Shown in pieces: positions 6,981 through 46,940 of a DNA stretch of 64,000 bases. The translations under genes were made by a program, and so were the position numbers. The stretch is from an uncultured delta proteobacterium (GTDB lineage Bacteria > Desulfobacterota > Desulfobacteria > Desulfobacterales > QNYZ01): contig CAWJQU010000016.1 of assembly GCA_963845145.1 (NCBI GenBank), positions 4,329 to 68,328 on the forward strand, written 5' to 3'. The first letter of the stretch is position 1. Each line of letters opens with the position of its first letter. The notes under the pieces were generated by a model, which saw only the letters and a program-made list of their open reading frames with translations, made no database searches and was not told where the DNA came from.

Positions 6981-7502
6981 TTAATCGGTTCTCCCAACGC
7001 ACAACTCCGCCGCTGCCGTCTCGGCGCCCTTTAAACGGGCATCGAGATTTGATGCGGCGACTTCACTTGAAGCGGTATTGGCAACCAATCCACGCTCTAC
7101 TTCCACCAGTCGCAGGTCCAAGCGCACGATATCTCCGATGATCTGGTAGGCACCGAATACCATCAGTTTGGCCCCCAGTATTCTTCCAATTTTTAGCTGA
7201 GTGGCCTCGCTGGCCACAGCACTTGAGCCCAGATTAAGCTCTTCCAAGGCCAGGATTAGCTTCTCCCGTTCGACGATCCTGAATTCGCATTGATTTTCAA
7301 GGGTTTCAATAATCGTCCCAGATATGAATTCTCCCAGATCCGGCTGGCCGGCCTTGATGGGACTCAAATCTTCCATGTCCCAGACTGCCACCACCGCGCC
7401 GGGCCCATAGGCCGGCTTCTCCACGGTGGGTGGGGTGCCGGCACAACCCAAGATAAAAAAAACAAGGGCAATAATGAGGGGTATTCTATTCTTTGGTTGC
7501 AT
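6981..7502 (-). CDS. Small lipoprotein with CsgG/LpoB-like module
   Basis: I place the start at ATG 7502 ('MQPKNRIPLIIALVFFILGCAG', canonical lipobox), not at the track's 7703. It overlaps the upstream gene's end by 17 nt. 'VVAVWDMEDLSP..GEFISGTIIETL..FRIVEREKLILALEELNLGSS..IGRILGAKLMVFGAY'. Confidence 0.75.
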   Translation of the reverse strand: MQPKNRIPLIIALVFFILGCAGTPPTVEKPAYGPGAVVAVWDMEDLSPIKAGQPDLGEFISGTIIETLENQCEFRIVEREKLILALEELNLGSSAVASEATQLKIGRILGAKLMVFGAYQIIGDIVRLDLRLVEVERGLVANTASSEVAASNLDARLKGAETAAAELCVGRTD

Positions 7503-9474
7503 CCTTGCCCTCCCTGGCCACGACATCTTCAAGTTTTTCCCTGATCTTATCATCTTTTCCAAACGCACGATCGGCCTGAAGAACCGTGGCAAAAGCCATA
7601 TCTGGGCCGGTTTCGACGATTTCCAGCTCACCAATGACCTGGGGCAGCCCTTGGAGTTTTTTGCCTTTGTATTTGATGGGTTTACCCGGCTGAACAATCT
7701 CAAATTTGGTGCCCATGACCACGCCCTGGTTCGTTCCCAGATTGACCATGACCCGCTCGTCGGCCATTTGAACCACGTATCCCTGCAGAGGATATTTGGT
7801 GATGACTGTTTTTAAGATATCCTGATCCAGGGCGTTGAGGGCCGTCTCAAAGGGCTCTGATAAACTCATCTTGCGTGTAAATACTTTGGCCACAGCAGAG
7901 GTTTCGGTATCGATTAGCCGAATCGACAGAAGTGTTTTATCCGGCATATGGATGATGGTCCCCGTTCCGATCAATTTAGCCGCCAATACCTTGCCGAGTT
8001 TTAGGGCGGTTTCCGGGTCAGCGAGATCCGAAGAACCGAGGTTGAGTTCTTCCAGAAGGCGTTCTATCAGGACCCGCTCCACCACCTGAACACGGCCGGA
8101 ATCATTTAATTGCCCGGTTAGGTGTGCGCTTAACACAGAGGGAAGCCCATCCCGTCGGGCCAACCCGCCTTTTTCCTGCATGTCGACAAAGGTCAAAATC
8201 ATGGGGCGAGAGGTCCACTGGTCTTTTTTTCCGGAAAAGATCGATTGTTGGCTGCGATAACGTTCGGCCAGATCTTTGACCAGCTTATCAACCCTTGCCC
8301 CTCGTGTGGCATCTTTTTGAAGGGCCAGCATTTCTTCACTCTTTTTGGCGAGAATCGCGGCATACGTATCGTTTTTATTTACGGCCAGCGCGGCTTTAAA
8401 AGTTTCCAGGGCGTTAGCCCAATCACCTTCCTTTTGGTAAGTGATGGCTTTATTGGATGTGGCTTCAATAAAGTAGGGATTAATTTCCACCGCTTGGTCG
8501 TAAAGGGGGCGTGCCCTGTCATAATTACCGCGGTTGGCTTCAATGCGTGCTTTTTGATTCATGGCAATCGCTTTTTGAAAAGGTTCTCCCTCTTGCTTAT
8601 TAACGGCCTTGTCATACTCAGCCAGGGCAGCTTCTTTCTGTCCTTGGCTATACAACACATCGCCTTTGATCACATTGGCATAGACGCGATCCGGCGCTCT
8701 TTTCTCCACTTCGGCGGCCAGAGCCAAAGCTTTTTCGGTTTCACCTTGTTTGGCATGCAGTGCGGATAATCCCTCTATCCCCCGTATTTCACCTTCTCCC
8801 CCTTGGTTGGATAGGGTTTGAAACATCTGTTTCGCTTCGGGATAATTTCCTTGCTTCAACGCCGCATATCCCATGATGGTTTTAGACTCGATGTTTTGAG
8901 GGTTTTTCTTTTCTACTTCTCGGCTGATGGCTTTGGCCAGCTTCGGTTGATCGCGGTCTAGCTGTCGTGCCGCCAAACGGGTTAGCATCACCTCGGTGGT
9001 TTTTCCGCCACCTTGAAAGGCATCAAGCACCTTTAACCCTGGTCCAAGGATAAATATGCTTGGAAGGATAAGCTGGGCCTGGTACGTATCGCTCACCCCT
9101 TTTTCATCGATTAAAACAGGAAATTGAAGATCGACCTTCGTAACGAAATTGTTTACCTGGCTTGCCGGAGATCGGGTAATTCCCCAGACAACGAGCTCTG
9201 CATCTTTATAGGTGCGCGACAGTTGATCAAGATTTTGTAATCCAGTACGGCTAGCCTTGGATGTGGCGTCAAAAAAGTAAAGGACGATCATGGGTCGATC
9301 CTGCATGCTTGCCAAATCATACGGCCGCCCAAAAACATCGCTTAATGTGAAAGTCGGTGCCGGCGATCCAGCTGTGGGTTGGCCGAAAACCGGCGTCGTA
9401 AAGAGCAGCCCTGACCCGATGAGGCAAGTGAGAAGTATACAAGATAAAGGATTTTTAATCATTTTCATGGTCAT
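7486..9474 (-). CDS. Secreted multidomain protein: Cys-less redoxin-like fold, TPR repeats, CsgG/LpoB-like module, C-terminal beta-rich module
   Basis: Signal peptide 'LLTCLIGSGLLFTTPVFGQ'. Redoxin/AhpC-TSA-like 'FTLSDVFGRPYDL..RPMIVLYFFDATSKASR..VVWGIT', with ATSKAS where CxxC is expected. Long TPR region. 'ILTFVDMQEKGG..RVQVVERVLIERLLEELNLGSSDL..LGKVLAAKLIGTG', then 'GYVVQMADERVMVNLGTNQGVVMGTKFEIV'. Confidence 0.8.
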   Translation of the reverse strand: MTMKMIKNPLSCILLTCLIGSGLLFTTPVFGQPTAGSPAPTFTLSDVFGRPYDLASMQDRPMIVLYFFDATSKASRTGLQNLDQLSRTYKDAELVVWGITRSPASQVNNFVTKVDLQFPVLIDEKGVSDTYQAQLILPSIFILGPGLKVLDAFQGGGKTTEVMLTRLAARQLDRDQPKLAKAISREVEKKNPQNIESKTIMGYAALKQGNYPEAKQMFQTLSNQGGEGEIRGIEGLSALHAKQGETEKALALAAEVEKRAPDRVYANVIKGDVLYSQGQKEAALAEYDKAVNKQEGEPFQKAIAMNQKARIEANRGNYDRARPLYDQAVEINPYFIEATSNKAITYQKEGDWANALETFKAALAVNKNDTYAAILAKKSEEMLALQKDATRGARVDKLVKDLAERYRSQQSIFSGKKDQWTSRPMILTFVDMQEKGGLARRDGLPSVLSAHLTGQLNDSGRVQVVERVLIERLLEELNLGSSDLADPETALKLGKVLAAKLIGTGTIIHMPDKTLLSIRLIDTETSAVAKVFTRKMSLSEPFETALNALDQDILKTVITKYPLQGYVVQMADERVMVNLGTNQGVVMGTKFEIVQPGKPIKYKGKKLQGLPQVIGELEIVETGPDMAFATVLQADRAFGKDDKIREKLEDVVAREGKDATKE

Positions 9475-12066: not shown

Positions 12067-13155
12067 ATGCCAGAAAAACCGACCATTGTCGTTCAGCTCA
12101 TACATATCGAAGGCCCTTTGAAAGGAAAAATCGAGGAGTTCGTCGACCCGGTTTTACAGATTGGGCGTCACCCTGATTGTCAGATACGCTTTCCGAAAGA
12201 TGTGACCCTCATTTCAAGAAATCACGCCGAAATTGTCAGAGAAGGGAATCGGTTTAAACTTCTTGATCACAGTGCCAACGGAACGTTTTTAAATGGTAAG
12301 GCTATCAAAGAGGCCATTTTAAAAAACGGCGATGTTCTCATGATTGGCGATGGCGGTCCAAAGGTTAGCTTTCTGACTGAAATAAAATCGAGCGCGGGCG
12401 AAGCTTTCCAAACGTCCCCGACACCTTTAGCCATGCCTCAATCCCCAGGTAGTTCCCAAGAGGTGTCAAAACACAGGCCACCCGTACAACCGGCGCTCTC
12501 TATCCCAAAACCATCGACCCCGTCGGTAGCGCCCCGAGAGCAGATCGCTTCAAAATTTTCAGCACCAAAGCCAGGCCTTAATTCAGCCGATTTACAGGTT
12601 CAGGCACCCCTGGCAATTCAATTCGGCCCGACGATCCAGTCTTTTAAGGTACTTCCGGTAACTGTAGGGAAAAAGAATGATTGCGATTATGTGATCAACC
12701 ATGCTCACATTATAGATCGGCATGTTCAATTTTTTTATTTTGAATCCAATTATTGGGTTAAGGATCTGACCGGGCAAGGCTTGATAACCATTAACGAAAA
12801 TCCTGTCCAGGGCCAAACGCCTCTTCATCCCGGCAGCCGGTTATCATTAAGTCCTCAAGGTCCCGTTTTTCAATTTCTTAACGGCGGACGATTGGTGGAG
12901 GATGCGAATCAACCCATTAGCGCACCTTCCGAATCCCCGCAGGGTACGCCCGAGATGCCCTGGGAGATAGCCCCCAAGGCACCGCGCCGAAAAAAGAAGG
13001 CACTCGTTTTTTTAATCGGATTTTTGGTCATCCTGGTGACAGTAAGTGTATTGTATCTGCTTGTCTCCAACGCTACGGATGGTCCTGGGGCGGGTGGACT
13101 AAAAGAGTGGTGGTACCGTTGGATGGAAACGATTCGACGCGTTGTTGGGTCATAA
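12067..13155 (+). CDS. Membrane-anchored protein with two FHA domains
   Basis: FHA1 is 'LQIGRHPDCQIRFP..ISRNHAEIVREGNRFKLLDHSANGTFLNGKAI'. FHA2 is 'VTVGKKNDCDYVI..IDRHVQFFYFESNYWVKDLTGQGLITINENPV'. C-terminal TM 'ALVFLIGFLVILVTVSVLYLLV'. Confidence 0.88.
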   Translation: MPEKPTIVVQLIHIEGPLKGKIEEFVDPVLQIGRHPDCQIRFPKDVTLISRNHAEIVREGNRFKLLDHSANGTFLNGKAIKEAILKNGDVLMIGDGGPKVSFLTEIKSSAGEAFQTSPTPLAMPQSPGSSQEVSKHRPPVQPALSIPKPSTPSVAPREQIASKFSAPKPGLNSADLQVQAPLAIQFGPTIQSFKVLPVTVGKKNDCDYVINHAHIIDRHVQFFYFESNYWVKDLTGQGLITINENPVQGQTPLHPGSRLSLSPQGPVFQFLNGGRLVEDANQPISAPSESPQGTPEMPWEIAPKAPRRKKKALVFLIGFLVILVTVSVLYLLVSNATDGPGAGGLKEWWYRWMETIRRVVGS

Positions 13156-13358: not shown

Positions 13359-14123
13359 CTACAGGTGCTCCTCGATGGCATTCTTTAAGGGGTCGGCCAT
13401 TCCTTCCAAACTGCCCAGATCGATAATTTCTTGAAAAGCTGGAATTCCTGATAGCTGCGTGACTTCGGTAATAAATTTATCTGATGGTAGAAATGTCCTT
13501 AGCGGCAGGGATAAAACGGCTACAGACAACCCGCCAAGATCATTTAGTGTTTGAATTTCAACATCGTATCTAAGATCCCTAAGAAGTACGCCAAGCATCG
13601 GGATTTGCTCAAGGAGGACGGTCATGCAAATGTGACAAAGCACTGACTGCTTTATCTCTTCCACTTGGCGAGATTCCGTTCCAGCCACCATCGCCCTGAT
13701 CCGATTAAGACTACACTCATTTTCATATGCTAAAATGAATTGTGTGGGCGAGGTAACCGTCGTTATTTTATCGCCATTTTCACCCAATTGCAGCTTGTAT
13801 TGATATGGGGTGCATATTAGCTGGGGGGATATAGCAGAAAGTGGTATGGATAACTCTTTTCGCAGACCCAAAGGTTTTTCGGCCAAGCTTGCGTAGCGTT
13901 GCTGTAACGTGGCAAAGGCCTTATCCGAACCCGGCACATCCTTTTTTGACGTGCCCTTCATATAGGATCCCAGAAAATTTTGGGGGGCAAATAGCGGTTT
14001 TATTACCGCCAAATGTGTTTTTAAACGTGTGTTAAGGGAGCCGGCAATTTTTTCTGTGGTTTGTCGAAGGCTTAAAAACTCTGCATTATCCAAGTCTTTT
14101 CGCGACACATCTTCATTAGGCAT
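13359..14123 (-). CDS. Hypothetical protein (no family recognised), co-directional downstream of the FHA-SLT gene
   Basis: 254-aa ORF with coding-like composition. No motifs recognised. Confidence 0.5.
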   Translation of the reverse strand: MPNEDVSRKDLDNAEFLSLRQTTEKIAGSLNTRLKTHLAVIKPLFAPQNFLGSYMKGTSKKDVPGSDKAFATLQQRYASLAEKPLGLRKELSIPLSAISPQLICTPYQYKLQLGENGDKITTVTSPTQFILAYENECSLNRIRAMVAGTESRQVEEIKQSVLCHICMTVLLEQIPMLGVLLRDLRYDVEIQTLNDLGGLSVAVLSLPLRTFLPSDKFITEVTQLSGIPAFQEIIDLGSLEGMADPLKNAIEEHL

Positions 14124-14313: not shown

Positions 14314-15762
14314 CTACTTTGGCGAGGTTATTTTTGCTTGAATGGTACCCAAAGGATTGCCGAATGTAAATCCGAACAGCTGCGGATTTTCTCCGATAAC
14401 GGCCGCCGAAAAAATATAAAAAACATAGTCATAGGTTTGCTTAGGGATTTTCTTTTTGTATTTCAGCAACAGATTCCAAAAGTTTCGTTCGCGCGGGTTT
14501 TCAGGAATTGTCCGGATCAACTTGATCACTCTGTTTTCGCCCCAATTATAGGATGCCATGACGAGCAGCCCTGAAGCTTGAGCGTCCGTATCATATATAT
14601 CTCGTAGATATTTAGCTGCTGCCAGCGTGGCTTTTTCCGGGTTATGTCGATCATCTTGCGGGTCGGGTTGATTCTGTTTGACCAACGGACCGGTTTTTAA
14701 TCCGTATCTTCGGGCTGTGTCCGGAATAAATTGCCACATACCCTTGGCAATGCCCCAACGGGTTTTCGGCCCGACGGCATTTTTATTAAAATTACTCTCC
14801 TGAAGTGCGAGGTAAAAAAATTCAGGCGGTAAATCATATGCGGACAATGTTTGACCGATAGTGTCGATATATCCATTTTTTTTGGCTCGCGCGATCGCTC
14901 TAGCCATGCGCTGGCTTGATTTCCACTTGCCCACATACTTTAATACTTCTTTGGCAAAATCAGGCGGTACATCGATTTCGCATTCTCCAAAAATTCTTGC
15001 CGTCTGTAGAATGAGCCGCTCCTGGGGGCTGATGTCTTTTTTGTAAACTTTAAGGGTATTGATAAATTGATCGTAATTTTTTTCCATTTCCCGGCGCTTG
15101 GTCTTATACTGGTCGACTTTTTTAATGATTTTTTTGTCTTTAGTTTCCCGGGCAATCCGCAATAACTCTGAAAATTCCAGCTCCATGGCTTTCATATTGT
15201 AAAAAATATCTTTCGCCAGTTTGCGGTGTTTCTTGAGTTGATAGTGCTTTACTGTGGCAACGCTCCCCACCCCGATAAGCAGGCAGACGATAATACCGAT
15301 AATAGTAAAATATTTTCCTTTTTGTTTTTTTTGTACCTGGGAGAAAACTTGTCGAATCATCATGGTGTGCTCACCGGCCTGAGCATCGTCTTTGCTATCA
15401 AAGTAATGATTACGGTAATAGGTGAGTGATTGAGGGTCGGGCTCGGTTGACGATGGGAGGGTTTCTTCTTCGAGGGAGAGTAAAAGCAAGGGACCATCTG
15501 GGCCGAGCTGAATACGAGCGCTATTCGTTAACGGTTCCTGGTGGATTCGTTTACCGTCGATGTAGGTTCCATTGGCACTTACTAAATCCTTTATCCACCA
15601 TTGATCACCGATAAATAGAATTTCCACATGCTGCCGGCTGACGATACTATCGTGCAGCTTTACCTGGCAAGTGCTTCCCCGTCCGATACGAAATGCTTCG
15701 GAAAAAGAATAATCTACCTGGTCTGAATTACCTTTATCAATATGGACATGGACTTTGTTCAT
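14314..15762 (-). CDS. FHA domain - TM - lytic transglycosylase (SLT/GH23) fusion protein
   Basis: N-terminal FHA 'FRIGRGSTCQVKLHDSIVSRQHVEILFIGDQWWIKDLVSANGTYIDGKRI'. TM 'FTIIGIIVCLLIGVGSVATV'. C-terminal SLT motifs 'YLALQESNFNKNAV', 'GIAKGMWQFIPDTARRYGL' and 'VMASYNWG'. Confidence 0.88.
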   Translation of the reverse strand: MNKVHVHIDKGNSDQVDYSFSEAFRIGRGSTCQVKLHDSIVSRQHVEILFIGDQWWIKDLVSANGTYIDGKRIHQEPLTNSARIQLGPDGPLLLLSLEEETLPSSTEPDPQSLTYYRNHYFDSKDDAQAGEHTMMIRQVFSQVQKKQKGKYFTIIGIIVCLLIGVGSVATVKHYQLKKHRKLAKDIFYNMKAMELEFSELLRIARETKDKKIIKKVDQYKTKRREMEKNYDQFINTLKVYKKDISPQERLILQTARIFGECEIDVPPDFAKEVLKYVGKWKSSQRMARAIARAKKNGYIDTIGQTLSAYDLPPEFFYLALQESNFNKNAVGPKTRWGIAKGMWQFIPDTARRYGLKTGPLVKQNQPDPQDDRHNPEKATLAAAKYLRDIYDTDAQASGLLVMASYNWGENRVIKLIRTIPENPRERNFWNLLLKYKKKIPKQTYDYVFYIFSAAVIGENPQLFGFTFGNPLGTIQAKITSPK

Positions 15763-24626: not shown

Positions 24627-25526
24627 CTATATTTCCTGCCCTGTTCTGGAATCAATGGTCGGGCCATCTATACCTCGTCGGTATGTAGGCTCACTTCCAG
24701 TAGCATCGGAAGCTTGTCCTGCAAGGTAGGAAACAGCGGGAGTTACCAGTGCACTGATAGCATTGCCAGTACCTCCGCCCGCATCACCACCTAGTCCTGC
24801 CATTGCTGCCGCATTCATTAGCGCGCTTAAAACTGTATCAGCCGGTTGCCCTTGAGAAGGAAGTCTTGATAAAACGTGGTTAATCAGGGCTCCCGATAAT
24901 GCGCCGGCAATTGCTTGAACATTACAATTAGCACCGCCGATTGCTCTGCCTATAACGGCTGTTAATGCGTCGCCAATCATTCCAATACCTCCGGCAAAAA
25001 GGTCCCCAAGGGTAAAGGCGACGTTTCTCGTGCTAACTAACTGAAAGCAAAAGGTGGTCGGGGCAACAAAGGGCCAACCGGAAACATCCTGGCAATTTTG
25101 TGTAGATATTACCCATGCGGGAGTAGAAACAGCTACGGGAGTGTCTCCGCCCGGGGCGGAACCATCCACTGGTTCACGCACTGAAAATGAAGGGAGCCAA
25201 TATTTGGTTGATGAGGCGAGTATGCGAAGCAGGATCGACGGTGATGCAACTATAGGTGGAGACGGTATATGTGTTTGCCCCGGCCCCCAATTGTGTCCCC
25301 AAAGTATATTGCCGATCCCCTCAGTAGTCACCCTTTGCCATGACCACTTTCCGGTCAAGGCAAATCCTGATATTTGACTATTAATTACAACAAACCATGG
25401 AATGCTTGGGATGATGACAGGATTTGGTGGGGCTGGCGGAGGAGGAGGAATACTCGGCGGCGCAACCGAATGGAAGTCCACACCAACGCCGGCTATGGGC
25501 GGATATTTTGCAATTCGTGCCGTCAT
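24627..25526 (-). CDS. Candidate T6SS cargo effector: Pro-rich N-terminal region plus C-terminal glycine-zipper/amphipathic region
   Basis: Last gene of the vgrG operon. ATG 25526 lies 1 nt after the upstream TAA (alternative start 25547). 'VAPPSIPPPPPAPPNPVIIPSIPW'. C-terminus 'GDLFAGGIGMIGDALTAVIGRAIGGANCNVQAIAGALSGALIN..AAMAGLGGDAGGGTGNAISALV'. Confidence 0.6.
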   Translation of the reverse strand: MTARIAKYPPIAGVGVDFHSVAPPSIPPPPPAPPNPVIIPSIPWFVVINSQISGFALTGKWSWQRVTTEGIGNILWGHNWGPGQTHIPSPPIVASPSILLRILASSTKYWLPSFSVREPVDGSAPGGDTPVAVSTPAWVISTQNCQDVSGWPFVAPTTFCFQLVSTRNVAFTLGDLFAGGIGMIGDALTAVIGRAIGGANCNVQAIAGALSGALINHVLSRLPSQGQPADTVLSALMNAAAMAGLGGDAGGGTGNAISALVTPAVSYLAGQASDATGSEPTYRRGIDGPTIDSRTGQEI

Positions 25527-25527
25527 T

Positions 25528-26823
25528 TTAAAACCTATGCATATCAATTATAATTGTTGGCAATAATTTGTCCAACTGACCTTGGCTAATGGGTTTAGTT
25601 AGAACAGTTCGAGCCGACCAGATTAAATTTAAACTTTGTTTATGTAAATCAATGCAAACTAGCATTAGTTGCGTATCGGCAGGTGATGAATCTACATGTG
25701 GAGAATTAAGTGCAAAGATGGGCCTTTCACCTGGTAATTGGACTATATATTCAGATATACGCTTATTCATTCCAATAAGCTGGATTTTTTCATTTCCTCT
25801 TAAAAACGGTAGCCAGAGTCCCAGCGAAGCACAACGGCCGGCCAACGGGTGAATTAAATTTTGTAGTTCGGAAATTGGCGTAGAAAAAACGTTTCCACGG
25901 CAATAATCCTTTGGGATCAATGAGAGAGCCACTTCTTTTACCGGTTCTTGATTAAGTGCTATTGCTGGAGGTAATCCAACCATGGCTGATCGAGGGAAAG
26001 ACTGAACGTCAAAATAATCGAATCCCACTGGAAGAGGCTGCTTATTCCAGGTTAACGGATTATCAACAATGAGCCGCTCCGTAGTCAGCCGGTCATCAAC
26101 TCGCTCAAGATTCGGTAACTCACGCCCTTCTATGAACTTACGATTCCCCTCGATGACATACCCTTTTCCATAACAATTACGTGGATACACGAGTGGAGGG
26201 GAATCTTTCAAATAGGCTTCGGCCACGGGTTTAACTCGGCGGATATGATCTGGAGCCGCGTTCTTACTGATCTCTTTCAGTAATGTCTCTTCGAAACTTA
26301 AATCTCTGCCACCATACGCATTTTCATATCGAAGCGCCATCTCCTCGAAAGGTTCCGGTGGAGTAAAAATAAGCCGCCCCTTTACATAGTCACAGAAACG
26401 TCGACCAATAACGTCCGCAGCATGGCGATAGTCACCGACTTGCACGGCAACAGTCATACTTTTAGTGGGATGAACCGATTGGGCACTAGCTTGCACTACC
26501 AGATCGGTTCCATTCTTAACCCCTATTATTTCCGGTAGTGACTTATACGAAAAAGGCTCGGTATCCGGTGTCGTTTTGTCATCATCATATCGGATACCTT
26601 GTTCATCAAGCGGAATCTGTTCATCAGCCGGCACACTGGGGCGATCATGGCTGAAATCATAAGTTCTTTTGTGAATGACGGTTAATTCCTCCACACCCTT
26701 AATATTCACTACCGTTAACTTAGTTTGCCCTGGGGATTGGATGTGGATATGGGAAGGAATACCTGTTTTGGATGCCTGTTCAAATGGTATCGGCTGGGGA
26801 ATTGTTTTTTTAATATCAACCAT
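25528..26823 (-). CDS. DUF2169-family T6SS-associated protein (second copy)
   Basis: ATG 26823 overlaps the upstream stop by 8 nt. 'LTVIHKRTYDF..GTDLVVQASAQS..MTVAVQVGDYRHAADVIGRRFC..PEPFEEMALRYENAYGG' follows the DUF2169 block order. Confidence 0.7.
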   Translation of the reverse strand: MVDIKKTIPQPIPFEQASKTGIPSHIHIQSPGQTKLTVVNIKGVEELTVIHKRTYDFSHDRPSVPADEQIPLDEQGIRYDDDKTTPDTEPFSYKSLPEIIGVKNGTDLVVQASAQSVHPTKSMTVAVQVGDYRHAADVIGRRFCDYVKGRLIFTPPEPFEEMALRYENAYGGRDLSFEETLLKEISKNAAPDHIRRVKPVAEAYLKDSPPLVYPRNCYGKGYVIEGNRKFIEGRELPNLERVDDRLTTERLIVDNPLTWNKQPLPVGFDYFDVQSFPRSAMVGLPPAIALNQEPVKEVALSLIPKDYCRGNVFSTPISELQNLIHPLAGRCASLGLWLPFLRGNEKIQLIGMNKRISEYIVQLPGERPIFALNSPHVDSSPADTQLMLVCIDLHKQSLNLIWSARTVLTKPISQGQLDKLLPTIIIDMHRF

Positions 26824-27838
26824 AATGGTCTTCCGGCCGGGTGCGTGGTCTGACTATAGGATCGTCAAACCCTTCAAGTTTAACGCAGCGTTTTTCCAAT
26901 GGACTAAAAAGGTAACGAAAAAGGCACAAATAACCGGCAATCAACACTCTTTCATCGGCAAGGATAACGAGCGATGATAATGTGGAGGGAAAGCGGCTAT
27001 GAAGAGAACCCACTGTAACAATAGCCGTCGGCCCAATAGAGGGAGGGGTAGGGAAGATGATATCTCCTGTGGTAGATAATCCGGATAATCGTATATTTGC
27101 CCCAATTTCCCCATTTTTTATTACCAGTTCAGGTACAGTTTGATTGAATACGGACTCAATCAGAGGAATCATCAGATCCTCAGGGTCGGCTGATTCTTTT
27201 TCATTAAAATACATCCCTTTAGGTTTGAAGAAGCAGGCCGGAGGAGGTTGATCGCTCCATCTCCGGATCAGAGAGTCCTGCTGCTCCAGGTTAGGGAGCG
27301 GTTGGCCCTCAGCCTGGCTCTTGGACAAGTAAAAACCACGACCATCTGGATTTACGGAGTGGGCAAGCTCACTATCCTCCCATACCGCCTTGCCACCATA
27401 AGCGTAATTGTTTGAAAGATCCATTTCCAAAAAAGGTAAAGGTTCGGAAGCGACGAGTTCACCATTGGACACCCTCCAAGTCCGATCACCAAATACCTCT
27501 ATTTTATGTGAAACATTACCGCATTCCACAGCAACATACATTCTTTTAACGGGTTCTGCTTTTAATGCAATCGCCTTACCGAAAACAATAATATCAATAC
27601 CTTTTTTTCGATAATCCAATTCCGGTGCCAAACTTATGTCTCTGAATACAAAGGGTTTTTCGAATACTGGCCAACCTTCTTCGGGATCAACCGGTATCAA
27701 AGATTCTCGGTCGAGGGAATAGGTGATTTTACTAGCCACAATACCGAGCATTTCCGTATCACCCATGGAGCCGGAAAGAAAGTCGGCCGGGAACCTTGTC
27801 GAATTGATAAACTTCATCAGATAGTCACTAATCCTCAC
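26816..27838 (-). CDS. DUF2169-family T6SS-associated protein (first copy)
   Basis: 'MKFINSTRFPADFL..MLGIVASKITYSL..LDYRKKGIDIIVFGKA..VAVECGNVSHKIEVFGDRTWRV..PFLEMDLSNNYAYGG'. The likely true start is ATG 27817 ('MKFINST') rather than GTG 27838. Confidence 0.75.
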   Translation of the reverse strand: MRISDYLMKFINSTRFPADFLSGSMGDTEMLGIVASKITYSLDRESLIPVDPEEGWPVFEKPFVFRDISLAPELDYRKKGIDIIVFGKAIALKAEPVKRMYVAVECGNVSHKIEVFGDRTWRVSNGELVASEPLPFLEMDLSNNYAYGGKAVWEDSELAHSVNPDGRGFYLSKSQAEGQPLPNLEQQDSLIRRWSDQPPPACFFKPKGMYFNEKESADPEDLMIPLIESVFNQTVPELVIKNGEIGANIRLSGLSTTGDIIFPTPPSIGPTAIVTVGSLHSRFPSTLSSLVILADERVLIAGYLCLFRYLFSPLEKRCVKLEGFDDPIVRPRTRPEDHYG

Positions 27839-28163
27839 TAAAGTCAGGGTGGCCTACACAAGGAATTTCCTGTAACCTTTTATGGTTTTTAAAAACGGCA
27901 AGCTCCATGAATTTCTGTGAGCGATTATTAAAATCTTCATCATCATCAATATCTTTATTGTGATCGGTCTCAATTAATTGTCGTAACTTAGAATTATAAA
28001 ATTCATGTTTGAAGTTCTCCATAACAGCATCTTCGCGTGAAGCCCAGTCTTCCATATCAGGAGAATTTCCGGCAACTATCAGGTTTAAGAATTCTTCACG
28101 TAAGAGCCCCAGCTTGTTTTCTAAAAAAAGAACTGCAGCAACGTCTCGTATGGATTTCAGCAT
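27828..28163 (-). CDS. Small acidic hypothetical protein in vgrG operon (possible chaperone or immunity protein; unassigned)
   Basis: 111-aa ORF, helix-rich by eye, with an acidic patch 'DHNKDIDDDEDFNN'. No signal peptide or TM. Confidence 0.55.
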   Translation of the reverse strand: MLKSIRDVAAVLFLENKLGLLREEFLNLIVAGNSPDMEDWASREDAVMENFKHEFYNSKLRQLIETDHNKDIDDDEDFNNRSQKFMELAVFKNHKRLQEIPCVGHPDFSED

Positions 28164-28284
28164 TTTAATAACCTTGATGCTGATAATTTGTAGTTAGATG
28201 ATCGTTTCATAAAAGGCCTGCGTGGAACTTTATTTTCTATCTAATTGAGTTAGTGGTATAATTTTACATATTTCAGGAAAATTT

Positions 28285-28713
28285 TCAGCAATTTAAACGA
28301 ATCCGTTCGCCATCCAGTTTAACATCGTCATTTGCTTTGATATCAATGTCTCCAAGATCGGCAGTAATCATTTGGCCCCGAGCCTTGCTGTACAGGTCAC
28401 CCTCTGCCTCAATATGAATGTTTCCATCTGTTGTCAGAGCCATATCTTTTCGGCTGTGAATAGATACTCTTTCAGCATCAATAGCTAAATTCCCCTCAGC
28501 CTGGATCGTTAGAGTCCCTCCACCGATTTTCAACACCGGCCCAGCTGTAGTGATTTGAATCGATAGACTCAAATTACCATCTGAACCAACGATATTTAAG
28601 ACATTGCTGAGCTGATGGTTCTCAATTACGAGTTTTTGTTTTGCAACAAGAGCCACCGTTTTTGTATTTGTCGCTTTTGTAAGTGCTTGGCTCTTTTTCA
28701 TAAAGTATTCCAA
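28285..28713 (-). CDS. Free-standing beta-helix-repeat protein resembling a VgrG C-terminal spike extension
   Basis: Starts 4-16 nt after the vgrG stop (TTG 28713 or ATG 28701). Reiterated alternating pattern 'LSLSIQITTAG..LKIGGGTLTIQAEGNLAIDAERVSIHSRKDMALTTDGNIHIEAEGDLY..DIDIKANDDVKLDGERIRLN'. Confidence 0.65.
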   Translation of the reverse strand: MEYFMKKSQALTKATNTKTVALVAKQKLVIENHQLSNVLNIVGSDGNLSLSIQITTAGPVLKIGGGTLTIQAEGNLAIDAERVSIHSRKDMALTTDGNIHIEAEGDLYSKARGQMITADLGDIDIKANDDVKLDGERIRLNC

Positions 28714-28716
28714 TCT

Positions 28717-30684
28717 TTAAGCATTATGTTTTATTAGAGAAGCTGTTTCGGTAATGATTCCACCCGTACTGATATTAACGCCACTGCCATCGGCTTTTGT
28801 TATGGAACCACCGCCGGAAAGGATGGACGTAGGCGCTTCGATTTTAGCCTCGGCAGGACTGCTCATAAAGGCATTGGCATCCAAGGTAATGCTGGAACCT
28901 CCCCCCGCACTGATGGTTATCTTGGCGGGTTCAATGGTTACCGAGCTTCCCCCACAAGTCAGCTTGATCTTGGCCGGGGCCTGCATGTTAATTTCACTTG
29001 TGGTATCGAGCTGGTAATTACCGGTCACATTTACCGTTCGGTTGCCAGCCTCTACCGTCAGGCTGGTATCCCCTTTGACTGTAACAGATCGGGTTCCCGC
29101 CTGAACTCCGATGGTATCGTTTCCTCCAACGATAGTTGTTGTGCGATCGTTTTCGATGGTTGATCCCATATCCTTCTGCGCATGGATGGTTACACCCTCT
29201 TTTCCTTTGGTATCATTTAACGAGAATTCATTGTACCCACCGCTGCCGGGAGTGCTGTTGGATTTCATACCACTGACAACTTTTTGGCCGGGAAGCCCGA
29301 AAGGCGGCATTAGTTCGGCGTTGTAAACGCGGCCGGTGATGAGGGGTCGGTCAGGATCGCCTTCCATGAAGCTGACTATCACCTCTTCGCCGATACGGGG
29401 AATATCGATTCCGCCAAACCCTTTTCCGGCATGAACCTGGGATACTCGGATCCAGCAGGAGGTGTTTTCATCGTACTTTCCTTCCCGGTCCCAGTGGAAC
29501 TGCACCTTGACCTGTCCGTTTTTATCCGTAAAGATCTCTTCTCCGGGAGGGCCGGTAACCACAGCGGTCTGGGTGCCTTGGATTATCGGTTTGGGTGTTG
29601 TGCGCGCCGGTCGGAATTGGACGGAGCTGGGTATAGTGGTAAAGGCACATGAACAGATCTCACCCTGCCCGCCGGAGGTTTCATAATCTTCGGCCGCAGC
29701 TTGATAATCGGTGGACAAAATCAAATACTCACGGTTCTGGTCTCTACGTGTATGCTGGGCCATGGTAAAGAGATAACCCGCGCAAATGCCCCGGGAATCC
29801 GCCTGACCGCTGCAGACCTCATGGGATTGGGCCAACTCTTCCATGCGGATTTTGGCATATTTGTCGCCATCGGCTTTTTCCGAATATTCGCCCGGATAGT
29901 CATAAATTTCATATTCAGCCTCGGCATGCTCCTTTATATCCTCTTCCGTGCTCATCAAAGAGGTACTCGGTTTTTCAAAATTGTAATCGGTATGGGCGAC
30001 TTTCCCAGGCTGGACGCATTTTTCGACCGTCCATGTACTGATTCGTTCCTGGATCGACGAGCTGCGGGTATCGGGCGTAAAGTCAATCTCATCGTAATCC
30101 CCGAAAGGATCATGCTTGCTGCGCGAATCGCAAAGCACAATGGTGCATTTACCCTGCTCGTGCAGAAAATAATAATAGATGCCCTCTTGTTCCATCAGTC
30201 GGCTGACGAAGTTGAAATCCGTTTCCCGATATTGGACACAATAATTCCATGTTTGGTATCCGCCGGAAAGCCGATCCTCGATGTCGCTGAAACCCAAATC
30301 ATTAAAGACTTGTTTGATAATATCCGGGACCGTCTTTTCCTGGAAGATGCGGCAGTCTGACGTGCGGGTTAAAAACCATAACCAGGGCACCATCGTTGCG
30401 CGGTATTGGGCAAACTGGGTACTGGTCGACACACCTTGCACAAAACGGTTGATATACCCATTCCAGTAGCGCTTGCCTCCTTCGGGTAATTCCATGCTAA
30501 TCGTTACATTCTGTCCGATGATATCGTCGAAGTTGATTTCGTAGTCTTCGCTTAACAGGTTGAGATCAAACTCAAATAAGCGACTGATCTCTTCATGCGC
30601 AGAGAAACTCTGTAGCAACAGCACATCTTCGCCCAAAGATGTTTCTATAGCGATATGTCGGGTTGCCTGGGTTGGTTGAGGCAT
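28717..30684 (-). CDS. vgrG: T6SS spike protein VgrG (TssI), no C-terminal effector extension
   Basis: 'FEFDLNLLSED..YRATMVPWLWFLTRTSDCRIFQEKTVPDIIKQVF..YCVQYRETDFNFVSRLMEQEGIYYYF..WIRVSQVHAGKGFG..PRIGEEVIVSFMEGDPDRPLITG'. Confidence 0.96.
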   Translation of the reverse strand: MPQPTQATRHIAIETSLGEDVLLLQSFSAHEEISRLFEFDLNLLSEDYEINFDDIIGQNVTISMELPEGGKRYWNGYINRFVQGVSTSTQFAQYRATMVPWLWFLTRTSDCRIFQEKTVPDIIKQVFNDLGFSDIEDRLSGGYQTWNYCVQYRETDFNFVSRLMEQEGIYYYFLHEQGKCTIVLCDSRSKHDPFGDYDEIDFTPDTRSSSIQERISTWTVEKCVQPGKVAHTDYNFEKPSTSLMSTEEDIKEHAEAEYEIYDYPGEYSEKADGDKYAKIRMEELAQSHEVCSGQADSRGICAGYLFTMAQHTRRDQNREYLILSTDYQAAAEDYETSGGQGEICSCAFTTIPSSVQFRPARTTPKPIIQGTQTAVVTGPPGEEIFTDKNGQVKVQFHWDREGKYDENTSCWIRVSQVHAGKGFGGIDIPRIGEEVIVSFMEGDPDRPLITGRVYNAELMPPFGLPGQKVVSGMKSNSTPGSGGYNEFSLNDTKGKEGVTIHAQKDMGSTIENDRTTTIVGGNDTIGVQAGTRSVTVKGDTSLTVEAGNRTVNVTGNYQLDTTSEINMQAPAKIKLTCGGSSVTIEPAKITISAGGGSSITLDANAFMSSPAEAKIEAPTSILSGGGSITKADGSGVNISTGGIITETASLIKHNA

Positions 30685-30908
30685 GATGCACTCCTCTTGC
30701 TACAGGTTAGTCTACAAAAAAACCGCTTTAAATGCAACGAAAGGGCTTCCAGAGTATCCCACTTTTTCACGTTAGCGGATACTCTGGTCTCAGGTACCAT
30801 TATCTGCGAGAGAGCCTTGATACTGGTCACGGAATAATAGTTGTCGATTCGTAAGTTGAAGGGTCTGTATGAAAACCCTGGCAGACACCAAAAACCTCGG
30901 GCCTCCGA

Positions 30909-31388
30909 TTACTCGCCCGATTCCACTTTCCAGGTATACTCAACGTTTCCTTTCTTCTTACCTGTGTTGTCGTTTTCGGTGTAGGTCACTTTGATTTCTT
31001 CAAAGTTCAACGACATTTGTTCGGTCGGCACATCTTCCGCCTGCCCGCTACCACCAACGTTATAGCTCGTGACTAAAACGTTTTTCAGTTCATAGGCATA
31101 GTAAGTCACCCGTCCGGCATCGGTGGTTGAGGCCGTCAGGTGAATCTCTACCTTTGGAAAAACTTTTCCTTTGCACATGGACTCGGCAATCTTCGGGCTT
31201 GCCTTGTCCAACTCCTTTACTATCGTGACATCTTCCATTACGACGTCACCCCGACGACGGGTCGGCCCGGTGGCGGCGCCTCCCGGCTGCATAATCCCCT
31301 GGCTAAATGAAAGGATATCACTCCAGCCTTTGTGATCCTTATCCTGGGCCTCACCCTCCACGCCATCATACTTGATGTAAGCCGCCAT
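30909..31388 (-). CDS. hcp: T6SS tube protein Hcp (TssD)
   Basis: 'MAAYIKYDGVEGEAQDKDHKGWSDILSFSQGI', 159 aa, AAGGAGG RBS. Confidence 0.95.
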   Translation of the reverse strand: MAAYIKYDGVEGEAQDKDHKGWSDILSFSQGIMQPGGAATGPTRRRGDVVMEDVTIVKELDKASPKIAESMCKGKVFPKVEIHLTASTTDAGRVTYYAYELKNVLVTSYNVGGSGQAEDVPTEQMSLNFEEIKVTYTENDNTGKKKGNVEYTWKVESGE

Positions 31389-31545
31389 TGTTGCCTCCTT
31401 TTTTGATGTTAATGGTATCTTCCGAGGTCATCGTATGGAAGACACTGTTTAAAATCTCATTCAGATTGAAAAACCTGAAGTCCCGAATGCTAATTTATTC
31501 ACCTCCCTTCGACTTTCTTTCTGAGCCGTAAACCTGCCTCACAGA

Positions 31546-34311
31546 TCAGGAAAATGAATAGTCAAAACTGCCATCCTTTACTCCGATGTGAATCCTGCTC
31601 AGTTCTTTTCCCTCCATCATTCGTGAGAGGATATCACTGCTGATTGCAGGCAGCAAGGTGTTGGTTAAAATAGCATCCACCACCCGTGCGCCACTTTCTA
31701 ACTCCGTACAGCGATTATTGATTAACTCGACGACATCGTCGTCATAGGTAAATGGGATGCGGTGGTTTTCAAGAATCCGTTCTTCAATACGACCCAATTG
31801 CAGGCGCACGATTTTACGCAGGACCTCGTCGCCAAGGGGATAATACGGTACCACCACCAGGCGTCCCAAAAAGGCCGCGGGAAAGGCCTTAAGCAGGGGC
31901 TCCCTCAGTGCTTTGCCAATACCTTCGGGACCCGGCATGAGTTCGGGATCTTTACACATGTTCATGATCAGATCGCTCCCCACATTACTGGTAAGGAGAA
32001 TAATCGTATTCTTAAAATCGATCATTCGGCCTTCACCATCTTCCATCTTCCCTTTGTCAAAGACCTGGAAGAAAATTTCGTGCACATCTTTGTGGGCCTT
32101 CTCTACCTCATCCAGCAAAACAATACTATACGGCCGTCTGCGGACCGCCTCAGTGAGCACCCCCCCTTCACCGTATCCGACATAGCCGGGAGGCGCCCCC
32201 TTGAGGGTTGAGACCGTGTGGGCCTCCTGGAATTCGCTCATGTTAATGGTGATAACATTTTGTTCGCCACCGTAAAGGGCTTCCGCCAGGGCCAGGGCAG
32301 ACTCCGTTTTACCGACACCACTCGGACCCACTAACATAAAGACACCGATTGGCCGTCCCGGGTTCTCCAATTTGGCCCGCGAGGTTCGCATGCGCATGGC
32401 AATTGCATCCAAGGCATGGCGTTGCCCGATGACCCGTTTCTCCAACGTATCGGCCAGGTTCATAACAGCTTCGATCTCGTTTTTAACCATCCGGCCAACC
32501 GGGACGCCTGTCCAGTCGGCGACGACGGAGGCTACGGCTTGGGCATCAACACTGGGCAAAATCAATGGTGTTTCGCCCTGGATCTCACCAAGCTTGGCCA
32601 TAAAACCCTTGAGCTTTGTCACCATGGCCTCGCGGTCTTCTTCGGATAAGGTGACTTTGTCTCCGGCTTCTTGCTCCGATTCGTTGTCATCCGAGGCCGC
32701 CTGAATCTCTTTTTCTGCGGAATCATTGTCTTCCAATTTATCATCAATCGGTTCGCCTGTTGTGGCGCGAAGGCTACCTCGTAGCGTTAGGACCTGGTCG
32801 ACGATTTCCTTTTCCTTTTGCCAGTCCGCTTCCAGCTGCTTTAATTCATCGGCCTCAGTTGACAACTGCGCTTCAATTTCGGCCCGACGTTCATGACGCG
32901 CCATGCCTATGGCTTCTTCTCTTTTTAGAATTTCTTTTTCTGTTTCGAGGGCGGAGATGCGTCGGCGGCAAGCTTCGACCGTTGCCGGGGTGGCATGTAG
33001 ACTGACGGCCACACGCGCACATGCCGTGTCGAGCAGGCTAACCGCTTTATCAGGCAGGTGACGCGCGGGAATATAACGGTGGGAAAGTTGAACGGCCGCC
33101 ACCAGGGCTTCGTCTAAAATTTGGACACGATGGTGTTTCTCACTGACTCCCGCCAGACCTCGCATCATGATGGTCGCCTTTTCTTCGGAAGGCTCATCGA
33201 TTTTCACGACCTGGAACCGCCGCGTAAGGGCAGCGTCTTTTTCAAAATATTTTTTGTATTCTGCCCAGGTTGTTGCTGCAATCGTGCGCAGTGTTCCCCG
33301 TGCAAGGGCCGGTTTGAGCAGGTTGGCCGCATCCCCGGAGCCTGCCGCGCCTCCGGCACCGATCAAGGTATGGGCCTCGTCAATAAAGAGAATGATCGGT
33401 TTGGGTGACGCCTGGACCTCTTCGATGACCTGGCGAAGCCGGTTCTCGAATTCTCCCTTCATACTCGCGCCGGCCTGCAACAGGCCTAGATCAAGTGTGC
33501 GCAGGGTTACGTCTCGAAGGGGGGGCGGGATATCCCCTGAAACGATACGCTGGGCAAATCCTTCGACAACGGCGGTCTTACCGACGCCGGCCTCTCCCGT
33601 AAGAATCGGATTGTTCTGACGCCGGCGCATCAGAATATCAACAATCTGTCTGATCTCGTCATCGCGCCCCAGAATCGGGTCGAGGCCACCCTCTCGAGCG
33701 GTTTTTGTTAAATCCACAGAAAATTGGGCTAAGGCTTCCTGTTTTCCCAAGGCCGCCGGCGCCAGGGCGCTGCTGGCCTCGCCGGGAGCCACACCGCCTC
33801 CTACCTGGGACCCATCTTGGGCCGCCAATGTATCCTCAGGAGAGCTACCGACAATTGAGAGGAAATTATCCGAAAGGTCTTCGACCTTGATTTTCCTGAA
33901 CTCTGACGAAATTCCGGGTAGTAAAGATCTCAGGCTGGGCGCTTTTAATAGCCCAATGATCATTTGGCCGGAACGAACCTGTGATTGTCCAAAAAGCAAT
34001 GTACAGAAAACCCACGCTCTTTCGACGGCTTCTTCCAAATGGGGCGAAAAGTCGGAGATTGAGGTTGCACCGCGTGGAAGATTGTCAAGCGACGAAGTCA
34101 AGTCCGACGCCAGGTGGGACATGTTCAGATCATAGTGTTTCACAATGTGATGCAGATCCGAATCCTGCAACTGGAGCACTTGATGTAACCAGTGCACCAG
34201 CTCTACGTAGGGATTACCTCGCATTTTGCAGAATACCGTGGCACTTTCTACCGATTTGTAGCAAAGACTGTTAAGTTTTCCGAACAATGCAGTGCGACTT
34301 ATATCCGCCAT
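31546..34311 (-). CDS. clpV: T6SS AAA+ ATPase ClpV (TssH)
   Basis: Clp N-domain. Walker A 'GEAGVGKTA' and 'GPSGVGKTE'. Coiled-coil middle domain. 921 aa. Confidence 0.96.
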   Translation of the reverse strand: MADISRTALFGKLNSLCYKSVESATVFCKMRGNPYVELVHWLHQVLQLQDSDLHHIVKHYDLNMSHLASDLTSSLDNLPRGATSISDFSPHLEEAVERAWVFCTLLFGQSQVRSGQMIIGLLKAPSLRSLLPGISSEFRKIKVEDLSDNFLSIVGSSPEDTLAAQDGSQVGGGVAPGEASSALAPAALGKQEALAQFSVDLTKTAREGGLDPILGRDDEIRQIVDILMRRRQNNPILTGEAGVGKTAVVEGFAQRIVSGDIPPPLRDVTLRTLDLGLLQAGASMKGEFENRLRQVIEEVQASPKPIILFIDEAHTLIGAGGAAGSGDAANLLKPALARGTLRTIAATTWAEYKKYFEKDAALTRRFQVVKIDEPSEEKATIMMRGLAGVSEKHHRVQILDEALVAAVQLSHRYIPARHLPDKAVSLLDTACARVAVSLHATPATVEACRRRISALETEKEILKREEAIGMARHERRAEIEAQLSTEADELKQLEADWQKEKEIVDQVLTLRGSLRATTGEPIDDKLEDNDSAEKEIQAASDDNESEQEAGDKVTLSEEDREAMVTKLKGFMAKLGEIQGETPLILPSVDAQAVASVVADWTGVPVGRMVKNEIEAVMNLADTLEKRVIGQRHALDAIAMRMRTSRAKLENPGRPIGVFMLVGPSGVGKTESALALAEALYGGEQNVITINMSEFQEAHTVSTLKGAPPGYVGYGEGGVLTEAVRRRPYSIVLLDEVEKAHKDVHEIFFQVFDKGKMEDGEGRMIDFKNTIILLTSNVGSDLIMNMCKDPELMPGPEGIGKALREPLLKAFPAAFLGRLVVVPYYPLGDEVLRKIVRLQLGRIEERILENHRIPFTYDDDVVELINNRCTELESGARVVDAILTNTLLPAISSDILSRMMEGKELSRIHIGVKDGSFDYSFS

Positions 34312-34349
34312 GGTGTTATCCTTTTTTCAGTTCAATGGATTATCATTTT

Positions 34350-35369
34350 CTACACTGCGTCAGCCACCAGAATCAAGTCATCGGTGTCCTTTTCAAATGG
34401 TTGGCTTTGAAGCCACGTGGTCCAACCAAGACATCCCGTTTGACCGAGCCGCACCGCCGGTACCTCACCCGCCTTGAGGATCAGTTGCAGTTCCCAGCTC
34501 AGTTCGTCGCCCACATAATTTCGGACCCAAGCCTTCAGTCTTGTAAAGCTATCGCCCCCTGGTAGCATACGCTCATAGTTTTTTAATGTCATGGGGCCCA
34601 TAATGATCCTGAATTTTTGCTGGCAGTCCCAAACCCGCGATCCAACAATGGCATTGACACCCATCGTCGCTGCATCTTCCGATCGACCCAATCGGCACCA
34701 GTACACTTCGGGTAATTTGATCCATTGGCCGATAAATTCTTTGATTGAGGCCTTAATGCCGAAGTACTTCTCTAAAATAGCACGCAGCCCTTCGGCATGG
34801 CGAGTCTGGCAGGCAAGATGCCCCGAAAAATGGAGTTTGGCGACATCGGGGACTTCATCACGATTACGCAAAGAATCTTCACCGATACCGAACAAACTTC
34901 CAATATACGCAGAAAACCGGTCTTGATCATGGCGATCGTAACTTACCGTTTGCCGATTGCAGGCCCAGGCCCGATAAAACAGGCTGATCATGCGGTGATT
35001 AAAAATGTCAAAAAATCGGGCCAGGGTATGGTCATCGTGATTCAATTCACGATTGTGAACATATTCGGTGATATGCAAGGGCATCGGACCGTGGGGGCCG
35101 AGAAGACCGAAGAAATTAACCATAAGACGTGGTTTTTTGGCCTGTTTGGGCTGTTCAAAACGCTGAAGTGTTGATGGCGCAAAGCCTAAGGACGGTTCCT
35201 GACAGAATTGAATGGGATCATCCGACGAACGGGTTGAATAACCCAGACGGGGGTTATTCTTAAACGCGCATTCCAGCCGTCGGGCAGCCTGGTAGAAGCT
35301 GGTCCCGGCAGGATTTTCAAGAAATCGTAGATCTAAAGAATGTGTCTGGTTCCCGATCTTGCCGGCCAT
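34350..35369 (-). CDS. tssG: T6SS baseplate protein TssG
   Basis: 'FYQAARRLE..PRLGYS..DPIQFCQEPSLGFAPS' and position after tssF. Confidence 0.9.
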   Translation of the reverse strand: MAGKIGNQTHSLDLRFLENPAGTSFYQAARRLECAFKNNPRLGYSTRSSDDPIQFCQEPSLGFAPSTLQRFEQPKQAKKPRLMVNFFGLLGPHGPMPLHITEYVHNRELNHDDHTLARFFDIFNHRMISLFYRAWACNRQTVSYDRHDQDRFSAYIGSLFGIGEDSLRNRDEVPDVAKLHFSGHLACQTRHAEGLRAILEKYFGIKASIKEFIGQWIKLPEVYWCRLGRSEDAATMGVNAIVGSRVWDCQQKFRIIMGPMTLKNYERMLPGGDSFTRLKAWVRNYVGDELSWELQLILKAGEVPAVRLGQTGCLGWTTWLQSQPFEKDTDDLILVADAV

Positions 35370-40746: not shown

Positions 40747-40839
40747 AACTTTTCCTCCCCTATTTTTGAAGATAAGACCTCAGCGTACCAAGGCTTTGCA
40801 AACAGTTGCGCTTTCTTTATTCGATGCAAGTAAAATGTC

Positions 40840-46931: not shown

Positions 46932-46940
46932 CTCGGATAC

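Follow-up and report, generated by a model that had tools for sequence, protein, structure and literature searches.

Why does a predicted peptidoglycan-cutting enzyme carry a phosphothreonine-reading domain on the other side of the membrane, and does it work for a type VI secretion system (T6SS) encoded nearby? The question is raised by a gene in a stretch of 64,000 nucleotides (nt) from an uncultured delta proteobacterium (Desulfobacterales; assembly GCA_963845145.1, contig CAWJQU010000016.1), the whole of which is hereafter called the window. In this gene an FHA domain, a single transmembrane (TM) helix and an SLT-type lytic transglycosylase domain are joined in one polypeptide, hereafter the fusion. 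We put at roughly even chances that the FHA domain ties an MltD-type wall cutter to a Hanks-kinase phosphothreonine pathway, with or without PP2C, which serves the neighbouring T6SS in this lineage. As judged from gene neighbourhoods and genome content, the link to kinase and PP2C genes is the steadiest association seen, and the link to T6SS is frequent and strong, not obligate.

Architecture and conservation of the fusion

The open reading frame (ORF), Pfam, hydropathy and AlphaFold2 agree on a single polypeptide containing all three elements, as a sequence-only reading of the window had described. The features of the gene are as follows.

14314..15762, minus strand: FHA-TM-lytic transglycosylase fusion gene, 482 amino acids (aa); ORF list, Pfam FHA and SLT, AlphaFold2
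15469..15756, minus strand: predicted cytoplasmic FHA domain, residues 3-98; phosphothreonine-binding residues G27-R28, S42-R43-x-H45 and N64-G65
15346..15378, minus strand: juxtamembrane motif AGEHTMMIRQV (T133 codon 15364-15366), from conservation in 70 sequences; candidate phospho-acceptor or FHA-docking site
15250..15306, minus strand: single TM helix, residues 153-171; hydropathy and AlphaFold2 helix 131-207
14326..15027, minus strand: predicted periplasmic MltD-type (family 1D) lytic transglycosylase domain, residues 246-479; alignment and Foldseek
14794-14799, minus strand: catalytic E322-S323 (E322 codon 14797-14799); motif mapping

Both Pfam domains were found with ample scores. FHA was matched over residues 25-87 (E 3e-17, far over the cut-off) and SLT over residues 311-418 (PF01464, E 1.7e-19, 70 bits against a cut-off of 21.3), and the only hydrophobic segment is at residues 153-171 (Kyte-Doolittle mean 2.52). 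The AlphaFold2 model, built from a 70-sequence alignment, had a mean predicted local distance difference test score (pLDDT) of 86.9. It places an FHA beta-sandwich at residues 3-98, followed by a disordered linker (101-130) and a long helix holding the TM segment (131-207); a further helix (210-237) then leads to a globular domain (246-479). In Foldseek searches the N-terminal domain resembled the phosphothreonine-binding FHA domains of Mycobacterium tuberculosis FhaA (3po8) and Rv1747 (6ccd), with target-normalised template modelling scores of 0.86-0.87, and the C-terminal domain resembled Pseudomonas aeruginosa MltD (8rhe, 8rhf and 8rhi; 226-243 aligned columns). The FHA profile also picked up PDB chain 6c4u, which is labelled ‘Forkhead-associated 1’, bears the Foldseek title of an engineered FHA and has no species assigned.

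The intact catalytic Glu context and the two further motifs claimed from the sequence are indeed present, with LALQES containing E322, GMWQF at residues 341-345 and SYNWG at residues 404-408. Alignment with MltD 8rhe paired LALQES with LPVIES, GMWQFIP with GLWQFIP, SYNWGE with AYNAGE and QTYDYV with ETQDYV, and because each is matched in this way all four family-1 transglycosylase motifs of the fusion are considered intact. No signal peptide is present, and together with the compartment that each domain needs this points to an N-in/C-out topology, in which the FHA domain would be cytoplasmic and the enzyme periplasmic. The product is best described as a putative inner-membrane-anchored, MltD-type lytic transglycosylase with an FHA domain, whose activity is predicted from sequence. 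MltD is both the best fold match for residues ~246-479 and the best NCBIfam match, and the two proteins share the same catalytic module, in which ES, GxWQFIP, xYNxGE and TxDYV align. However, MltD is a lipoprotein with C-terminal LysM domains, whereas the fusion contains no LysM by Pfam and has an N-terminal TM helix and a cytoplasmic FHA domain. The MltD equivalog model NF008050 was matched at model positions 102-253 only, with 59 bits against a cut-off of 508.

Conservation was scored over 70 sequences of the fusion family from several phyla. Within the FHA pocket no variation is seen at G27, S42, H45, N64 or G65, and at least 90% of the sequences keep R28 and R43; the catalytic E322 and S323 are invariant too. 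Outside the two domains, conservation extends to a cytoplasmic juxtamembrane motif, AGEHTMM[I/V]R, and to a periplasmic FGECE motif. In the former T133 is invariant and G130, H132 and R137 reach at least 90%, which makes T133 a candidate phosphosite.

All of the best 120 matches in the protein collection contained both FHA and SLT, at 53-82% identity over their full length, with Desulfocapsa sulfexigens, Desulfobulbus, Candidatus Electrothrix and Desulfopila among the named sources. Cultured carriers include Desulfocapsa sulfexigens DSM 10523 and Desulfopila sp. IMCC35008. A scan using one genome per species found at least 564 species genomes with the family, conserved from end to end at 47-60% identity; they belong to the Desulfobacterota, Acidobacteriota (Bryobacterales, Terriglobia), Aminicenantes, Nitrospirota, Calditrichota and KSB1. 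Occurrence is patchy within phyla: in the window's phylum 2/301 sampled genomes carried the fusion, the nine others from its order gave no match, and fusion profile matches were found in 9/251 sampled Acidobacteriota genomes. A quick IQ-TREE search gave a family tree broadly in line with taxonomy. No description of the family was found in the literature searched, which covered few subscription journals.

Kinase, PP2C and T6SS genes around the family

Eighty related loci (L numbers below; genomes carry G numbers) were examined with up to 10 kb of flank each, all ORFs being clustered de novo and recurrent clusters annotated. Context counts were restricted to the 51 loci of at least 12 kb. A kinase was found in the flanks of 24/51 loci (within 3 kb in 19) and PP2C in 13/51. 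Either one or the other flanks the fusion at 27/51 loci, often in operon-tight arrangement, which lends support to the link to threonine phosphorylation that had been proposed from the sequence; neither does at the other 24. A T6SS core gene lies within 10 kb at 20/51 loci, drawn from several phyla, as compared with a chance of ~1% for a random gene by our own estimate. When all three are considered, 34/51 loci have a kinase, PP2C or T6SS gene in their flanks. Recurrent neighbours comprise Hanks kinases, PP2C, a dual-FHA protein, two protein clusters termed u254 and u240, VgrG, TssC, TssK, ClpV, TssG, TssF and TssM/L.

At several loci the fusion stands in a tight gene run with these partners. 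Where PP2C is a neighbour it never lies on the opposite strand and is in many cases the very next gene, and in L034 the stop codon of the fusion overlaps the PP2C start. In L005, the nearest informative relative of the window protein on the family tree, the order is TssJ-K-L-M-TagF-fusion with a gap of 51 nt before the fusion, then u254, and the vgrG operon is convergent. In L064 the fusion follows TssF-G-ClpV-VgrG-TssK-TssK after 41 nt and is accompanied by a kinase; the same gene order is seen in L075 and L078. Other arrangements are fusion-PP2C-TssM-L-K (L065) and TssC-TssB-x-fusion (L061). The window's module of fusion, u254, dual-FHA, protease, kinase and CsgG-like genes recurs beside VgrG/ClpV in L023, L030 and L036. 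Adjacency to T6SS genes is scattered over both major clades of the family tree.

The association is also seen at the level of whole genomes. TssC is encoded elsewhere in 17 of 20 fusion genomes lacking a nearby T6SS gene (one of the 17 being the unpublished G569, which holds L038). The close-ortholog set comprised 45 genomes, namely the 20 with a nearby T6SS, the 20 searched for TssC, and G000, G212, G461, G415 and G412, and T6SS was found in 40 of them (~89%) against a background of 9-12% (TssC in 35/301 genomes of the window's phylum and in 22/251 Acidobacteriota). These loci and genomes lend support to the link with T6SS that the sequence-only reading proposed, and so uphold its interpretation in part; the window gene itself stands outside its cluster.

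A replacement of TagH by the fusion in T6SS clusters was also considered and received no support: other FHA proteins occur near T6SS genes, and a comparison of 10 fusion-positive with 10 fusion-negative genomes gave no clean difference.

Three further features of the related loci were recorded. An adenylate/guanylate cyclase-FHA protein is encoded in L009 (8901-9794, plus strand) and L019 (9071-9964, plus strand), where the order is Ser/Thr kinase-PP2C-cyclase/FHA-fusion. A divergent TssB-TssC-like protein of 450-550 aa, with both VipA and VipB matches (PF05943 E ~1e-25), is found in L006 (6691-8163, minus strand) and also in L009, L014, L021, L030, L047, L060, L071 and G302 (C3:582592-583368); it recurs in many genomes both near the fusion and near canonical T6SS clusters, and the single PF05943 match reported for the window's own genome is canonical TssC. 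Acidobacteriota T6SS clusters with the fusion carry two tssK genes, which are in tandem in L064, L075 and L078 and have one or two genes between them in G302, G304, G309 and G312.

The T6SS cluster and kinase module of the window

The window contains the following features besides the fusion.

24627..52000, minus strand: T6SS cluster with vgrG operon, hcp, clpV, tssGFE, tagJ-like, tssCB, tssA-like, tagF, tssM, tssL, tssK, tssJ and two unknown genes; Pfam, TssA-like from NCBIfam
50369..52000, minus strand: gene at the head of the T6SS cluster; C-terminal tail with four ETIIV repeats (starting at residues 386, 427, 478 and 529)
13359..14123, minus strand: u254, a conserved cytoplasmic protein, 190 nt downstream of the fusion; AlphaFold2 pLDDT 86.4, predicted template modelling score 0.84
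12067..13155, plus strand: dual-FHA, single-TM protein, partly TagH-like; two Pfam FHA domains, TM 313-331
10863-11828, minus strand: trypsin-like protease; Pfam
9492-10841, minus strand: Hanks-type Ser/Thr kinase, TM 292-310, C-terminal PEGA; Pfam and hydropathy
6981..9474, minus strand: AhpC-like/TPR/CsgG-like protein and CsgG-like lipoprotein at the downstream end of the kinase module; Pfam

The sequence-only reading had noted that the T6SS cluster contains no wall enzyme and no TagL-type anchor. This holds for the families searched: the fusion is the sole SLT match on the window's contig, no OmpA/TagL-type domain was found on that contig, and the genome (93% complete) yielded no match to a VanY/TagX-type domain. 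The window's TssL is a short, DotU-only form of 225 aa, and every TssL in the clusters compared was of the short form (219-302 aa). An N-terminal phosphothreonine of the Agrobacterium type seems unlikely on the window's TssL, whose first 80 residues contain no Thr.

Two genes of the cluster deserve comment on their own. The 246-aa protein at 40840-41580 (minus strand) matched only the C-terminal part of the TIGR03363 TssA model, with 95 bits against a cut-off of 161, and is probably a short TssA-like cap protein. The tssM gene (42982-46780, minus strand) is split, in the region 44830-44900, into two ORFs of 631 and 615 aa, where relatives have a single ORF of ~1,160 aa. In independent public contigs, both those of a strain with at least 99% identity and those of a relative at ~93%, one base is missing at 44898/44899 and tssM reads through in one continuous frame. 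An assembly error or a lesion specific to this strain is the probable cause of the split.

The ETIIV-repeat gene heads the cluster, two genes upstream of tssJ. Its product was matched by neither Pfam nor NCBIfam, and it contains Cys-rich, zinc-ribbon-like motifs. Four of five homologues have 3-4 [E/Q]-T-hydrophobic-x3 repeats in tails that are otherwise unalignable; those in L005, G152 and G306 have three similar [E/Q]-T-hydrophobic repeats each. Many FHA domains prefer pT-x-x-[I/V/L], and both T133 of the fusion and the ETIIV repeats fit this preference; the repeat protein is a candidate docking platform with multiple phosphothreonines. In the H1 cluster of P. aeruginosa it is presumably fha1 that lies just upstream of tssJ. 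The possibility that the repeat protein is specific to fusion-bearing genomes was rejected, since homologues occur in the fusion-negative G152 and G090. As these genomes have a kinase near T6SS, the repeat protein tracks the pathway, not the fusion.

The fusion itself lies within the Hanks-kinase, dual-FHA, protease and CsgG-like module of the window, 3.5 kb from the kinase. The order of the kinase/protease module next to the fusion is the same in L004 and L023 and mostly kept in L030 and L036, and in all four loci CsgG-like genes follow the kinase. The dual-FHA gene lies next to the fusion at 11 loci, ten of which have it on the other strand, and its product scored 69 bits on the NCBIfam TagH model, under the cut-off of 120. 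u254 adjoins the fusion in nine loci. It had no Pfam, NCBIfam or Atlas match and no Foldseek match at E ≤ 0.001, and its best VIA Z was 4.3. A second protein lacking a family assignment, u240 (e.g. L007:10850-11569), often precedes u254 and is missing in the window. In L023 a PP2C gene sits between the dual-FHA and protease genes, where the window has a gap of 240 nt (10863-12067); comparison of the two seems to indicate that PP2C was lost from the kinase module in the window's lineage. Near the fusion gene, scans for promoters and terminators did no better than chance.

Explanations for the fusion and their meaning

How might such a protein act? Under the reading we favour, that of a kinase-linked cutter serving the T6SS, the PEGA-domain kinase would be activated and would phosphorylate Thr sites on membrane or T6SS proteins, candidates being the ETIIV-repeat protein and the fusion's own T133. 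The FHA domain would then dock on the phosphothreonine, and docking would place or activate the periplasmic catalytic domain where TssJLM must cross the peptidoglycan. The activity, the topology, the phospho-targets and the role in T6SS assembly are all predictions in this scheme.

Each half of the scheme has precedent. In enteroaggregative Escherichia coli the T6SS recruits MltE through TssM, and in Acinetobacter and Burkholderia TagX is a T6SS-encoded L,D-endopeptidase (PMC13584744). The job proposed for the fusion is the same, to open the peptidoglycan locally for the membrane complex of the T6SS, and like TagX the fusion is predicted to be inner-membrane anchored with a periplasmic catalytic domain and is often encoded in T6SS loci. 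However, TagX has a VanY peptidase fold whereas the fusion has SLT, and MltE, a housekeeping lipoprotein whose gene lies elsewhere, is recruited by way of a contact in the periplasm, whereas recruitment of the fusion would be cytoplasmic, through phosphothreonine. Neither MltE nor TagX has a cytoplasmic signalling domain such as the FHA of the fusion. The second half is the T6SS threonine phosphorylation pathway of TagH/Fha1, PpkA (TagE) and PppA (TagG) (PMC13584744), with which the fusion shares an intact phosphothreonine pocket, an adjoining Hanks kinase, PP2C in relatives and a frequent position in T6SS loci. TagH is soluble and contains no enzymatic domain, in contrast to the fusion, a predicted membrane protein with an enzyme; the TagH model TIGR03354 was matched over the FHA domain only, with 35.6 bits against a cut-off of 120.25, and the dual-FHA neighbour in the window scored higher. 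A 2026 review of T6SS accessory genes lists MltE, TagX, TagH, TagE and TagG and mentions no FHA-transglycosylase fusion (PMC13584744). The fusion thus combines known kinds, the wall enzymes of secretion systems and the threonine phosphorylation pathway.

The FHA folds closest to that of the fusion are those of the mycobacterial FhaA-MviN and Rv1747 systems (3po8, 3oun, 6ccd). There, cell-envelope biogenesis is controlled by an FHA domain that reads the mark left by a kinase on a membrane protein. In those systems the regulated transporter or flippase is a protein apart from the FHA protein, whereas the fusion would hold the reader and the wall enzyme in one polypeptide spanning a diderm inner membrane.

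Several observations weigh against a role in T6SS assembly. In the window, 8.9 kb lie between the fusion gene and the vgrG operon's last gene (24627), and vgrG itself is 13 kb away; six mixed-orientation genes (24537-16041) separate the T6SS cluster from the fusion. The two PP2C genes of the genome are on other contigs, none near the window's kinase, and six other SLT genes in the genome could serve the T6SS. The 80 loci were selected as closest relatives of a query that is itself linked to T6SS, and they lack phylogenetic independence. ET-repeat homologues head T6SS clusters in the fusion-negative G152 and G090. The sequence-only reading had held that the fusion's presence in genomes lacking T6SS would count against it, and this was found in a minority: among the close-ortholog genomes TssC was not found in G313, G315, G566, G415 and G412, nor was TssF in G313, G315, G415 and G412 (G566 was not searched for TssF). 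These are metagenome-assembled genomes with TssC and TssF in one cluster, and because a single assembly gap could hide both, absence of T6SS is not proven in these five. In the random Acidobacteriota sample TssC accompanied only 3/9 fusion profile matches, and divergent FHA-TM-SLT matches (E 1e-53 to 1e-117) were mostly T6SS-negative. Conversely, most T6SS genomes do not have the fusion, which occurred in 2/35 TssC-positive genomes of the sample from the window's phylum. Lastly, the clade of L028, L032 and L041 puts the fusion in a TolC-HlyD-ABC-MacB-PP2C setting, and these pump operon members, like the T6SS-negative divergent relatives, speak against a role restricted to T6SS.

Some of these points are also what would be expected of a general kinase-controlled enzyme for wall remodelling (in growth, division, shape or envelope stress) that has no specific T6SS role, an explanation that we consider possible though doubtful. 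The Hanks kinase/PP2C/FHA module would then have several outputs, T6SS regulation and this transglycosylase among them, and their genes would often be found near one another for that reason. The kinase is indeed the steadier partner, since it directly adjoins the fusion in the three genomes with no detectable T6SS for which the context was readable (L123 in G415, L080 and L081), and 31/51 large loci have no T6SS gene within 10 kb. The low TssC count in the random Acidobacteriota sample and the position of the window gene in a kinase module, outside the T6SS cluster, also fit, as does the closeness of the FHA fold to FhaA and Rv1747, given that in mycobacteria wall synthesis is known to be under FHA-mediated control (FhaA-MviN). 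Against this explanation stand a T6SS frequency in close-ortholog genomes so far above background and operon-tight insertions among T6SS structural genes that are repeated in different phyla; and so patchy a family (2/301 and 9/251 genomes) is unlike the housekeeping wall enzyme that would be expected.

The pump loci bring in a broader version, in which the fusion would be a space-maker for envelope-spanning machines in general and the FHA domain would address the cutter to whichever machine is marked by the local kinase. This would be the T6SS in a large number of genomes, elsewhere a tripartite pump of the MacB-TolC type, and perhaps the CsgG-like or PEGA-containing envelope proteins encoded in the window's own module. 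It would explain the operon OEP(TolC)-HlyD-ABC-MacB/FtsX-PP2C-fusion in L041 (4218-11401, plus strand), which has gaps of less than 20 nt, and the ABC- and MacB-type genes (with an OEP-type gene in L032) beside PP2C-fusion in L028 and L032. The CsgG-like and AhpC/TPR/CsgG proteins in the module of the window, L004, L023, L030 and L036, and the PEGA proteins that follow fusion-PP2C-kinase in L034, point the same way. However, wall cutting is not known to be a requirement of MacB-type pumps, the ABC/MacB genes may instead encode sensors of the TagS/TagT kind that act upstream of the kinase, and the T6SS is by far the commonest machine nearby, with the genomes of L028, L032 and L041 lying outside the T6SS search. 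On balance we regard this version as improbable. More improbable still, to the point that we give it very little weight, is that SLT serves mainly as a peptidoglycan-binding anchor, a stand-in for TagL or an evolved TssL that tethers a phospho-marked inner-membrane complex to the wall. The uniformly short TssL proteins and the lack of an OmpA-type anchor on the window's contig would leave room for such a part, but the Glu-Ser pair and the four family-1 motifs are invariant or nearly so in 70 sequences from several phyla, which argues for retained catalysis.

Returning to the kinase-linked cutter that serves the T6SS, a more elaborate form can be drawn, which we offer as speculation and think unlikely as a whole. 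The fusion would be the effector arm of a split Fha1-type switch, with the ET-repeat protein as a platform written by the PEGA kinase and read in trans by the dual-FHA protein and the fusion, so that one phosphorylation would both choose the site and open the wall. The same principle would be reused for e.g. MacB-TolC pumps in the absence of T6SS.

How a T6SS passes the cell wall is known in few models only (MltE in E. coli, TagX in Acinetobacter), and the choice of assembly site is an open question. The family described here is large, being spread over hundreds of species from sediment and soil phyla, and experiments are feasible because it includes cultured strains. If the favoured reading is true, one polypeptide would directly link the reading of a kinase mark to the cutting of the wall across the membrane, and the fusion would be a rare diderm case of a peptidoglycan hydrolase wired to Ser/Thr phosphorylation.

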